A stretch of DNA of 64,000 bases from an uncultured Nitrososphaeraceae archaeon (lineage in GTDB: Archaea > Thermoproteota > Nitrososphaeria > Nitrososphaerales > Nitrososphaeraceae): assembly GCA_963825865.1 (NCBI GenBank), contig CAWGVG010000026.1, positions 128,001-192,000 on the forward strand, written 5' to 3'. Below, one piece after another: positions 1-21,599 of this stretch. Each line of letters starts with the position of its first letter. Position 1 is the first letter of the stretch. Made by a program: the position numbers and the translations under genes. Below the pieces are notes generated by a model. The model did no database searches. It was not told the DNA's origin and saw nothing but the letters and a program-made list of their open reading frames with translations.

Positions 1-43
1 AAATTCAAGGTATAAACTTAAATCCTTGAGTAGACATTACTAT

Positions 44-285
44 ATTGTCCGGCTAGCCGAAAGAGATGAAAATCCGTCATTCAGATCTGCATAGTAGGTA
101 AAGGCCTGCTATGTTTAAAGAAATGATGTGTTGGCATCATATGAACTATAGGTATTCTGCTAGTCTGAGAGATTTAGCAAATAGTCCAATCGTGTGGTGT
201 TAAGGGCAAACCACAAGGCTGCGTGGAACCTGTGGGCTCAGTCTTGAATGGAAAGCCACATGTCTTCGAGTCTTAGTCGGATAAT
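44..285 (+). ncRNA. Putative large structured ncRNA, copy 1 (unknown family)
   Basis: 13-bp terminal stem (44-56/273-285) and several internal hairpins. Shares motifs GCCGAAAGAGA, AAGGG(C/A)AAACCACA(A/T)GGCTGC and AAGCCACATGTCTTCGAG with 21168-21402. No ORF. Confidence 0.75.
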
Positions 286-364
286 CTTAAATGTATTTTT
301 TGAATCTCGATACAAGAGTCAATATAGATTAATTAACAATAAAAAATTGGGCATAAGGGGTAGC

Positions 365-1493
365 CTAAGGTATTGCTTCTATGCTTGGTTTTTCTCCTCC
401 TATACTCCCTTCTATTATTGTTCCTAACCCTTTATCTTTGAGAACTTCATTCAGAATTGTTAAATCATATATTCCTGATAGATCAGGCCTCTCTTTTCCC
501 TTTGCCAAAAAACCAAGGTTATATGCATCATTTGCTGATTTGAAAAGTGAGACTTTTAACGGATCGTACGTAAATTCTATTCTTGGCCAAGCTTGTTGCA
601 ACTCATCTTCATTAATAGTGTGTCCAGTAAGTTTTTTGAGTTCAATATTGAATGCCTTTATCGCTTCTTCGCTATGACTATTTATCCATATGGTCTCGGT
701 TATATGTGCTGCCAAGTATTTTCTTTATTACATCTGGATTTTGTTGCAAATAATCTGTTCTGGCAACTATATTTGTCGTTACAAACTTACCGCTTGGCCA
801 TAAGTCTCTTTCATCTAGAAGTATTTTTCCATTGGCTTCTTTAACTAGTCTTGCAGCCCAAGGTTCCGGCACCCATGCACCGTCGATCTGTTTCTTTAAA
901 AACAAAACCAGTATGTCTGCATTTTCTGCTGGAATAACTTCAACATTTCCTCCGTTCTCTTTTGTTTTATATCCATTATCCTGCAAATATTTCCGAAGAG
1001 CTACATCTTGTGTATTTCCAAGCTGCGGCGAGGCGAATTTTTTATTTGCAAAATCCTTGGCTGAGTTAATTCCTGAATCATTTCTGACCACAAAAACTGC
1101 CCCTCCACTAGATGCACCTGAAATAATTCTGAGATCTTTTCCTTCAGATACCACATAACCATTGATTGCAGGATTAGGACCAACGTATGCCACATCTATC
1201 CTTTTTGCAATCAAAGCTTCAATCGCTGTAGGACCCGCGTTAAAGGTGTAAGTATGGATTTGTATGTCATTTCCTAAGGCTTTTTGAAAATTATTGTTAC
1301 CTAAACCTATCACAGCTTGAGCGTGATTTATGTTGGGAAAATATCCTATATTCAAAACCTTTATTTTATTACCGCTACTTCCTGTACTATTGTTGTTTAT
1401 AGTCTGTGCAGTCCCTATAGATGGCATGTGAATAATGGCTGCAATCAGGATCATTGACACAAGAGTTATTGTCAACTTTATTTTTGTATCCAT
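365..1493 (-). CDS. ssuA: Aliphatic sulfonate/nitrate-type ABC transporter substrate-binding protein (frameshift near 700)
   Basis: Signal anchor, IGYFPNINHAQA, SPQLGNTQD and WVPEPW motifs; ORFs 678..1493 and 365..715 join. Confidence 0.85.
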
Positions 1494-18571: not shown

Positions 18572-19036
18572 TTAAAGGTCTAACAAAAATCTAGTAATGA
18601 CTTTATTTCTTTCTTGTATGATTTCCATTTCGTGATAAGTTACTGCTTTAATCTCTACTTTGTAATGGTGTTTTTTGAGATTGAGATACTCTCCCTTAGC
18701 AATTCCTGAAAGAAAATAACTATTGTCGTTGTTATTATTATTCTGATATATTTTGACTTTGAAAACTGAAATTAGGATATTCTCAACCAAAAGCGTTAGC
18801 AGAACTTTCTCTAACCAATCGTAAAGTAGACTTTTAAGGTCGTATCCCTTTGCTTGTATATTGATTTCTTGATTAGGCGAAACTCGCTCTATGTCAAACA
18901 TTGTGTTAACAAGGCCACAAGCTGAATTTTCAAAAGCCTCATCTAATGTGCAACCATATGCCTCTATAACAGCATCTGTCAGATGATCAAGGTATCGGAA
19001 TCGTCGATGAACTGATGACATATTTGTATGATTCAA
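18572..19036 (-). CDS. Archease
   Basis: YLDHLTD and EIKAVTYH motifs. Confidence 0.92.
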   Translation of the reverse strand: MNHTNMSSVHRRFRYLDHLTDAVIEAYGCTLDEAFENSACGLVNTMFDIERVSPNQEINIQAKGYDLKSLLYDWLEKVLLTLLVENILISVFKVKIYQNNNNNDNSYFLSGIAKGEYLNLKKHHYKVEIKAVTYHEMEIIQERNKVITRFLLDL

Positions 19037-20416: not shown

Positions 20417-21167
20417 ATAGAGAACCTGTTACCATAACACGAGCACTTTTCGTTTTTATAATCGCATTTCATCTTTTTTTATCATAAACATAAATTTCTA
20501 ATTACAACTTCTGGAGGGTGCGAAGCTCCCAAATCAACGATACTCATTTTTGCCTTCAATTTGAAACGGATTGCACTCCATAGATATGTTTGAGAGTGCG
20601 AACTGGCGCTCGATGAAGACCTGTTATATATATATCAAATCCACCTTTTGAACTAAAGAAGAAGAGTTGATTGAATTCATTTCTTTATTTTATCTAAATG
20701 CTGCATATAGTCATTATCAAAGGAAATCTTGTAGGTCATCTTACTCTATATTGAGATCATATTATTTCATTTATGAATCATGCATCATGGTTAAATCTCT
20801 ATAAATGATACAGTTTGAAACAATTTCTAAAAAAAAGAGCATTTTCTAACTCAAAAAGATATAAGGTTACATATATGATTTGTAAATATTATGAATTACT
20901 ATAAGTAAAAAATACAAAGAACAGATTGTGATAAATTCATTGCAGAAGATGGGGCTTCCTCAAATAGAGGAATTGAAGCATATTTTGTATTAGATGGAAG
21001 AAATGTGCGGTAGCGTTTTGTCAATATAATTAGAAGATGTTTATCACAAATTTGCTATGGGAGCTGCAATAACCTATTATTGCTTATGACGTCGTCAATT
21101 ATATTCAATCTTATTTATTAATTGGTTTGACAGAAAGACATAAACTCTGCAATGCATCTGTATTTAC

Positions 21168-21402
21168 TATCCGATTGGCCGAAAGAGAAGAACGATCCAC
21201 CAATTTGCGCAAGGCTGCAAGTTTAGGCTTGTAGTCTCTTCAGAAATGGTGTTTATCGTGATATGCCGTAGGTTAACTACAGCTTCACCTGTAGGGAGTA
21301 CATGCATATATAAAGCGATAAGGGAAAACCACATGGCTGCCTCGTAGCCTATTGAAGTAGCTGTGCAAGGGAAGCCACATGTCTTCGAGAGCTGGTCGGA
21401 TA
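21168..21402 (+). ncRNA. Putative large structured ncRNA, copy 2 (unknown family)
   Basis: 12-bp terminal stem (21168-21179/21391-21402); same motif order and helices as 44-285 with compensatory changes. Confidence 0.75.
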
Positions 21403-21599
21403 TTATGATTAATACTGTTCTTAAACTGAATAGGAAATAAAGGCTGACGATATATTCGAATTACTCCAGGAAAGAGACATTATCCAAAAAAAACCTTAAG
21501 TTATGTACGCATTTAATTACAAAAGTACCCGAAAATTGAGGTGCCCATTGCTATTGTAATTCACATAGACTATACGATTAATATTGCGATCTCGTGAAA

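Follow-up and report, generated by a model that had tools for sequence, protein, structure and literature searches.

A conserved family of structured RNA genes in Nitrososphaerales archaea with a circular product excised at a bulge-helix-bulge motif

Two copies of a structured RNA and their relatives in the genome

The window, meaning the whole stretch of 64,000 nucleotides that was analysed, contains two copies of one structured RNA family, copy 1 at 44–285 and copy 2 at 21168–21402. An earlier note, made from the letters of this DNA, had described the two stretches as sharing motifs in the same order, and pairwise alignment confirmed this: the listed motifs are collinear, and the mean column identity is 79%. 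The note's multi-copy family is likewise real, but two copies were too few. BLAST within the genome found a third copy on contig C4 (75% identical). We also built a covariance model, R1, from alignment A4, which consists of 20 full-length relatives from one family. In this genome, R1 gave five full-length matches and one 47-nt fragment, as follows.

C4:560–805, full-length match
Window 46–284, full-length match, copy 1
Window 21168–21403, full-length match, copy 2
G000:C29:77237–77452 (+), weak decayed copy without the bulge-helix-bulge (BHB) motif
G000:C41:1674–1931 (−), weak decayed copy without the BHB motif
G000:C17:1–47, 47-nt fragment at the contig start

The decayed copies on C29 and C41 scored 50 and 43 bits, respectively, with R1. 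On C41, the copy and the 3′ end of an ORF for a short-chain dehydrogenase overlap.

The promoter-like boxes, the helices and the possible terminator lie at the following positions of the window.

11–16 (+), copy 1, TATA-like box TATAAA, ~31 nt before the processing stem
65–69/263–267 (+), copy 1, P1b, capped by a GAGA loop after ligation
75–81/122–128 (+), copy 1, P2
90–99/104–113 (+), copy 1, P3, with an invariant AAAG loop
131–139/195–203 (+), copy 1, P4
148–153 (+), copy 1, candidate pseudoknot strand AUAGGU before P5, pairing with 228–233
~159–178 (+), copy 1, P5, a variable hairpin
205–207/255–257 and 211–212/250–251 (+), copy 1, P6
215–222/238–245 (+), copy 1, P7
228–233 (+), copy 1, candidate pseudoknot strand ACCUGU in the P7 loop, pairing with 148–153
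295–300 (+), copy 1, T-run, possible terminator
21140–21145 (+), copy 2, TATA-like box ATAAAC, 28 nt before the processing stem

A purine-rich stretch lies directly upstream of the TATAAA of copy 1, and an ATAAA(C/G) box is present at a like distance (about 28–31 nt) upstream of copies 2 and 3 and of many relatives. Beyond this promoter-like box (~45 nt), the flanks are unrelated between copies, and those that form the outer helix of the processing stem keep pairing only. Since the flanks are unrelated save for the TATA-like box, each copy probably has its own promoter, and we take the box to be a putative archaeal promoter. The neighbours of the copies in this genome encode FGE-sulfatase-like, ABC substrate-binding, UDG, HisRS, archease, ABC transporter and histidine kinase proteins, and 14 loci of the family had no neighbour gene in common. 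A riboswitch or cis-regulatory leader was rejected because copy 1 is followed by genes on the opposite strand and no downstream gene is common across the loci.

RNAalifold on 20 family members predicted 49 pairs, and compensatory changes occur in 32 of these. When the candidate pseudoknot was included, 92.8% of the cells of A4 were paired, compared with 29–45% in controls whose partners had been slid by 1–3 columns. Both sides change in 33 of the 55 pairs, and none of 500 shuffles reached the observed values in any of five measures. The minimum free energy z-score was −5.3 for copy 1 and −3.4 for copy 2, and in small AT-rich genomes the G+C content of the RNA is 58–64%. Judged by these comparisons, the structure of the RNA family is real, and the invariant junctions and covarying stems seen by the earlier note are borne out. 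Its helices 44–56/273–285, 75–81/122–128, 90–98/105–113 and 131–139/195–203 were recovered by RNAalifold on three copies and on 20 members, whereas its GGCT/AGCC pairing in the 3′ domain was vaguely specified and corresponds loosely to P6/P7.

Invariant elements include the P3 loop, which is RAAG (AAAG or GAAG) across the family, and the joiners AGGGCNAAC and GAAAGCCACAU; exact matches to GAAAGCCACAU were found in 63 of 129 loci, every one of them at family members. The P7 loop, which reads ACCUAU in the family, is able to pair with AUAGGU. For this pairing, 85.8% of the cells are paired and both sides change in one of the six pairs, which is suggestive of a probable pseudoknot between the P7 loop and the junction strand. 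A brute-force search of the column pairs for additional tertiary pairing gave output dominated by noise.

We compared the RNA with known families. The whole window had no match in Rfam 15 at the gathering score, and in sensitive mode copies 1 and 2 gave nothing better than E = 0.4, which is chance level; the copies were scanned in genomic order, that is, with the circle described below unrotated. Thus, the Rfam scan of both copies that the earlier note had suggested yielded no significant family. No family was matched at E ≤0.01 on 11 distant members, and the scan of these members and of locus L109 gave, on the RNA itself, only weak matches or unrelated families. RNase P RNA was rejected, since RF00373 matched neither copy (E ≤10) nor the 11 distant members and the canonical gene lies elsewhere, as was the case in 10 of 10 genomes tested. 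SRP RNA was rejected as well: RF01857 matched neither copy, and its gene lies elsewhere in five of five genomes tested, four of the matches being above the Rfam cut-off and that in G017 below it (88.9 versus 96.5 bits). The note had excluded both RNAs by eye, and rightly so. Also rejected was an omega RNA, the guide RNA of TnpB or IscB, as the Pfam-scanned neighbours, which encode proteins of metabolism or housekeeping or the protein F0 described below, included no tnpB or iscB, and as there is no guide segment and no Rfam match. An unstructured, hypervariable, guide-like segment was not seen among 24 paralogues, whose differences amount to drift that preserves the structure and falls mainly in J4/5, P5 and P7.

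Excision at the bulge-helix-bulge motif and the circular product

The terminal stem of the earlier note corresponds to the outer helix of a BHB motif and lies outside the mature RNA. A canonical BHB consists of a 4-bp central helix and two 3-nt bulges on opposite strands, followed by an inner helix. Its elements in the two copies, with the circles that they delimit, are as follows.

48–57 (+), copy 1, 5′ strand of the outer helix, pairing with 272–281; removed 5′ leader
58–61 (+), copy 1, 5′ strand of the central helix, CGAA, pairing with 265–268
62–64 (+), copy 1, 5′ bulge AGA, predicted EndA cut between 63 and 64
64–270 (+), copy 1, mature circle of 207 nt, joint in four of four RNA runs
265–268 (+), copy 1, 3′ strand of the central helix, UUCG, re-pairing within P1b in the circle
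269–271 (+), copy 1, 3′ bulge AGU, predicted cut between 270 and 271
272–281 (+), copy 1, 3′ strand of the outer helix; removed 3′ trailer
21168–21179 (+), copy 2, 5′ strand of the outer helix
21180–21183 (+), copy 2, 5′ strand of the central helix, CGAA
21184–21186 and 21388–21390 (+), copy 2, bulges AGA and AGA
21186–21389 (+), copy 2, circle of 204 nt predicted from BHB geometry
21384–21387 (+), copy 2, 3′ strand of the central helix, UUCG
21391–21402 (+), copy 2, 3′ strand of the outer helix

A strict script found the BHB in 49 of 64 aligned members, two of the 49 being apparently spurious. The first outer pair of copy 1, C57·C272, is a mismatch; with one outer-helix mismatch allowed, the BHB was found in 59 of the 64, and among the five members that lack it are the two decayed copies of this genome. 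In alignment A7, which comprises 28 sequences spanning the order, all 10 pairs of the outer helix show changes on both sides, with 96.4% of the cells paired. The central helix is paired in 98.2% of the cells and three of its four pairs covary, its variants being CGAA/UUCG, CAAA/UUUG, CAGG/CCUG and CGGA/UCCG. Slid controls of A7 had 26–46% of the cells paired.

We searched RNA data for the product of copy 1. Words of 31 letters from window 1–400 occurred in 17 RNA runs, of which four, from four different studies, were assembled on the locus; the remaining 13 had small word shares. Each of the four assembled metatranscriptomes yielded one matching contig (206, 237, 237 and 237 nt), 95–99% identical to copy 1, and each of the four contigs contains the joint 268→62 with a 2-nt ambiguity. 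Owing to an AG dinucleotide repeated at the junction, this joint equals 270→64 and denotes the same circle. The length of 237 nt is 207 + 30, from which we infer a closed cycle that was read with 31-letter words. No RNA contig in the four runs fell on window 1–61 or 271–400, a gap that carries no inference by itself.

BHB motifs are cut after the second nucleotide of each bulge, a rule that comes from the literature on tRNA and rRNA BHBs. The observed joint agrees, within its 2-nt ambiguity, with cuts at these positions. Thus, the mature product is a BHB-excised circle, 207 nt long for copy 1, the evidence being assembled metatranscriptome contigs from RNA data on copy 1. A tandem or permuted DNA form in the sampled populations is a possible alternative source of the joint. 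The earlier note was correct in calling the RNA structured, but the ~240 nt that it assigned to it gives way to a mature circle of ~207 nt, and in place of the discrete ~240-nt transcript that it foresaw, all four RNA contigs carry the circular joint. If the product is a circle, a linear species of ~240 nt is not to be expected in a Northern blot.

Ligation brings four bases together in a junction loop, to which the central helix contributes its last base, the 3′ bulge its first two and the 5′ bulge its third. The loop sequence is GAGA in 33 members and GAAA in another 16, so that 49 of 59 have a GNRA tetraloop; nine of the other 10 have an alternative register with a UCGA/UCGA central helix. 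The bulge bases kept in the circle are conserved and those leaving with the flanks are variable, a pattern consistent with selection for a GNRA loop that is formed only by the ligation.

The genome encodes two EndA-type ORFs (PF01974; 99.9 and 76.4 bits, both above the cut-off) and one RtcB (PF01139; 578 bits). Archease is an activator of the RtcB ligase, and an archease gene (PF01951; E 4.6e-39) is located at window 18572–19036 (−), 2.1 kb upstream of copy 2, a proximity that may be due to chance. For archaeal circular RNAs, PMC12558985 describes a route in which EndA cleaves at BHB motifs and a ligase such as RtcB then joins the ends.

Distribution of the RNA and the neighbouring protein F0

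R1 found the RNA in 69 of 151 genomes of the family to which this archaeon belongs, in 14 of its 18 genera. These counts include the unpublished genomes G034 and G100. It was absent from genera g2 (0/21), g5 (0/21), g13 (0/21) and g6 (0/2). In the order, 38 of 151 genomes had R1 matches, always with one full-length match per genome outside the family, and one genome of another order of the class was also positive; its locus, L113, has the motifs and the BHB. The covariance-model search that the earlier note had proposed thus uncovered further homologues, and the note's undescribed archaeal ncRNA family stands, with R1 matches across Nitrososphaerales and no entry in Rfam 15. In family f13, matches were found in 0 of 23 and 1 of 80 genomes, the single match looking false, and in families f15 and f19 in 0 of 15 and 0 of 6; absence in these three families is as judged by R1, a one-family model. 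A pattern search covered 185,579 species genomes, and among the 80 loci listed at least 12 were confirmed by the covariance model. The titles of the confirmed loci are of the Nitrososphaer-/Thaumarchaeota kind, 'Thermoproteota archaeon' or 'uncultured archaeon'. The 68 bacterial loci among the 80 were rejected as chance, having no covariance-model match. A scan of viral contigs with a 19-nt motif gave no match. A restriction of the RNA family to Nitrososphaerales-type archaea is supported by these searches.

Most carriers have one copy, as do 17 of 21 genomes of genus g15, and a few soil genomes have 10–14; G076 has up to 14 matches and G017 has 10. The expansion in soil genomes shows recent duplication of a ~300-bp unit containing promoter and gene, which does not imply a mobility mechanism. 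Contigs G016:C113:1–237 and G016:C76:1–237 (L024 and L035) begin with the same RNA and diverge downstream, and contigs G015:C276, G032:C295 and G026:C130 start or end inside or at the RNA gene. Near-identical paralogues seem to break assemblies.

At 15 of 20 loci from other families, a gene for a conserved 220-aa protein (ORFs of 219–244 aa), F0, lies within ~2.5 kb of the RNA and is usually adjacent; at these loci it is directly upstream on the same strand, or adjacent. A block of a DEAD/DEAH-type helicase gene (500–590 aa), a rhomboid protease gene, the RNA and F0 was observed at L089–L092, L098 and L100. F0 had no match among Pfam, NCBIfam and PDB sequences, and its matches in a protein atlas were 'hypothetical' clusters only. 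Of its 4,871 homologues in the protein collection, the best 120, where named, are called 'hypothetical protein' or, by one source, 'integrase'. Saccharolobus islandicus L.D.8.5 has a distant homologue with 30% identity, the 205-aa hypothetical protein P0211, indicating that the F0 family extends outside ammonia oxidizers.

The AlphaFold model of F0 (pLDDT 92.2) has a PD-(D/E)xK core (alpha-beta-beta-beta-alpha-beta), and nucleases of this fold are the top Foldseek matches. The core gave Z values of 9.6 to 3dnx, 9.2 to 2okf (XisH-like) and 8.9 to 1y88. Residues D80, E93, E95 and K118 are invariant, the acidic ones being on strands 2 and 3. On this model, F0 belongs to the PD-(D/E)xK nuclease superfamily fold, and catalysis is at most predicted.

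The occurrences of F0 and the RNA coincide at the level of genera. Twelve genera have the two together, and g2 (0/21), g5 (0/21), g13 (0/21) and g6 (0/2), which amount to 65 genomes, most of them >95% complete, have neither; g11 is the sole discordant genus. The genus tally includes the unpublished genomes G034, G100 and G122. It may be that the four genera lacking the two form one clade, in which case their absence would reflect a single loss event. In the order sample, F0 was found in 37 of the 38 RNA-positive genomes. Its distribution is wider than that of the RNA, with F0 in 15 of 23 genomes of f13, 6 of 15 of f15 and 3 of 6 of f19, none of which had the RNA by R1, and 40 of the 77 F0-positive genomes among the 151 of the order sample had no detectable RNA. 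When 15 RNA-negative genomes were searched with filters off, no RNA was found within 2 kb of F0 in 14 of them, L127 being the only hit. The motif pattern gave one chance-like match in five complete f13 genomes. F0 is single-copy where the RNA reaches 10–14 copies and is 41–88% identical across the families of the order; it behaves like a vertically inherited core gene.

In the present genome, F0 (G000:C25:2571–3203, +) is followed ~0.8 kb downstream by the RNase P RNA gene (C25:4028–4309, +; L109). F0 also precedes RNase P RNA in G017 (0.7 kb), G102 and G014 (1.9 kb), the range being 0.7–1.9 kb. The place that RNase P RNA has beside F0 in these genomes belongs to the circular RNA gene in other families.

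Proposed function, rival explanations and known systems

Our proposal is as follows. Each copy would be an independent gene, with the putative TATA promoter, a primary transcript of ~250–260 nt and a probable oligo-T terminator. Leader and trailer would pair into a helix of 9–12 bp that continues into the BHB; as the motif and the presence of the genes suggest, EndA would then cut both bulges and RtcB would join the ends of the excised piece. The UUCG strand thus freed could re-pair with GAAGA, a purine-rich sequence just inside the circle, to give P1b, and the ligation junction would become a GNRA tetraloop. The closed RNA is predicted to fold into P2–P7, with the RAAG loop on P3, the probable pseudoknot and the joiners AGGGCNAAC and GAAAGCCACAU. 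The only conserved product would be a circular structured ncRNA of ~190–217 nt.

The RNA is a genuine, conserved and expressed gene family of ammonia-oxidizing archaea. As the best overall explanation, we consider it probable that these are conserved genes for BHB-excised circular ncRNAs whose likeliest role is in a ribonucleoprotein (RNP) with F0. On the role itself we are more tentative: that the circle serves an RNP with F0 as its RNA subunit or as a tightly binding regulator has somewhat less than an even chance of being right. Still more doubtful is an obligatorily circular RNP that folds only after the GNRA ligation and either directs, activates or restrains F0 or is itself a ribozyme.

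We weighed four other explanations. The RNA might be an antitoxin or inhibitor of a toxic nuclease F0, or a part of a defence module, by analogy to type III toxin-antitoxin pairs, in which the antitoxin is an RNA. The nuclease fold of F0, the presence of CdiA-CT toxin nucleases among its structural matches and the position of the RNA gene directly beside F0 in many lineages speak for it, but F0 has the single copy and the cross-family identity of a vertically inherited core gene, and it occurs without detectable RNA in over half of the F0-positive genomes of the order sample; we therefore regard this as unlikely. A smaller probability still attaches to a non-autonomous mobile element or retro-element whose RNA spreads via an RNA or DNA intermediate, the alternative that the earlier note had raised. 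The high copy numbers in G076 and G017, the copies at contig ends, the two G016 contigs that share the RNA and then differ, and the decayed copies on C29 and C41 would suit such an element. Set against these are the single copy in most g15 genomes and throughout the other families of the order, the position beside F0 conserved across families, the flanks sharing nothing past the ~45 nt of promoter, the lack of transposase, reverse transcriptase and TnpB genes among the scanned neighbours, the old paralogue subfamilies common to several genera and the viral contigs without a match. An RNA that is mostly single-copy, syntenic with F0 and accompanied by a promoter-like box alone does not look mobile.

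The two remaining explanations concern the circle itself, and we give each of them very little weight. In one, the circle would be a stable excised 'intron', and the ligated leader–trailer hairpin, or the processing as such, would be what functions. It is true that BHB excision also ligates the flanks and that the outer helix covaries strongly; however, all sequence conservation, including AGGGCNAAC, GAAAGCCACAU and the P3 loop, is inside the circle, the flanks keep pairing only, and the RNA contigs that match carry the circle. In the other, circularisation would rejoin a divergent or circularly permuted form of a known RNA such as RNase P RNA, SRP RNA or another Rfam family. There is a precedent in the permuted SRP RNA that, as described in PMC4731332, BHB circularisation restores, and within the family of this archaeon RNase P RNA follows F0 where other families have the circular RNA. 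Yet RNase P RNA and SRP RNA were found elsewhere in 10 of 10 and five of five genomes (one SRP RNA below the cut-off), and the unrotated scans gave no Rfam match with E <0.4 on the copies and none at E ≤0.01 on the 11 distant members.

Ammonia-oxidizing archaea are among the most abundant microbes of soils and oceans. To our knowledge, the RNAs annotated in their genomes are rRNA, tRNA, RNase P RNA and SRP RNA only. The present family would add a circular RNA that is as conserved and structured as these, made by the tRNA-splicing machinery as a stand-alone product and tied to the conserved protein F0. It would be the first large orphan structured archaeal RNA with a circular mature form, could provide a natural scaffold for stable circular RNA expression and gives the conserved 'hypothetical protein' family F0 a testable role. 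If the obligatorily circular RNP proved true, ammonia-oxidizing archaea would have an RNA machine without counterpart elsewhere. In the literature searched (supplements aside), neither this RNA nor any circular RNA of these archaea was found described, and preprints from 2026 on non-coding discovery are silent on the group.

OLE, GOLLD, ROOL and raiA are large, conserved and covarying bacterial ncRNAs, sometimes with one protein partner. The present RNA is like them in being large, covarying, conserved and abundant in environmental RNA, but it is archaeal and circular and, in a comparison made by Rfam only, has no match to their models. The omega RNAs of IS200/IS605 elements and their circular isoforms, as described in PMC12558985, are also structured archaeal ncRNAs of ~200 nt with a nuclease gene nearby. 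Here, by contrast, no TnpB or IscB neighbour and no guide segment were found, and the neighbour has a PD-(D/E)xK rather than a RuvC fold; in what PMC12558985 presents of the omega-RNA circles, a BHB is not reported for all of them.

Nearer in biogenesis are the small circles that, in the sources consulted, arise by the tRNA splicing machinery and ligases, namely circular tRNA introns, tricRNAs and circular C/D box sRNAs. Compared with C/D box sRNAs and typical tRNA introns, the present circle is 3–10 times larger and has a complex conserved fold. In addition, and unlike tRNA introns and C/D sRNAs, it has no tRNA or C/D-box host, and it is the circle that is conserved, not the exons. The permuted SRP RNA of Thermoproteus, as reported in PMC4731332, is likewise a stand-alone ncRNA gene requiring BHB cleavage and circularisation; that case, so far as the report describes it, is a permuted gene of the known SRP family, whereas the present RNA belongs to no known family and the canonical SRP RNA is encoded elsewhere. 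Archaeal pre-16S and pre-23S rRNAs share with it, according to the account in PMC12558985, a long flank helix with a BHB from which the RNA is excised and circularised. The rRNA circles are intermediates that are reopened, whereas the circle is the form found here in all four RNA runs (one contig each); the present RNA is also only ~207 nt long, non-ribosomal, encoded outside rRNA operons and endowed with a conserved GNRA loop that results from ligation. Thus, its biogenesis follows a known archaeal pathway, while the RNA, its circular design and the link to a PD-(D/E)xK protein are new in the literature searched.
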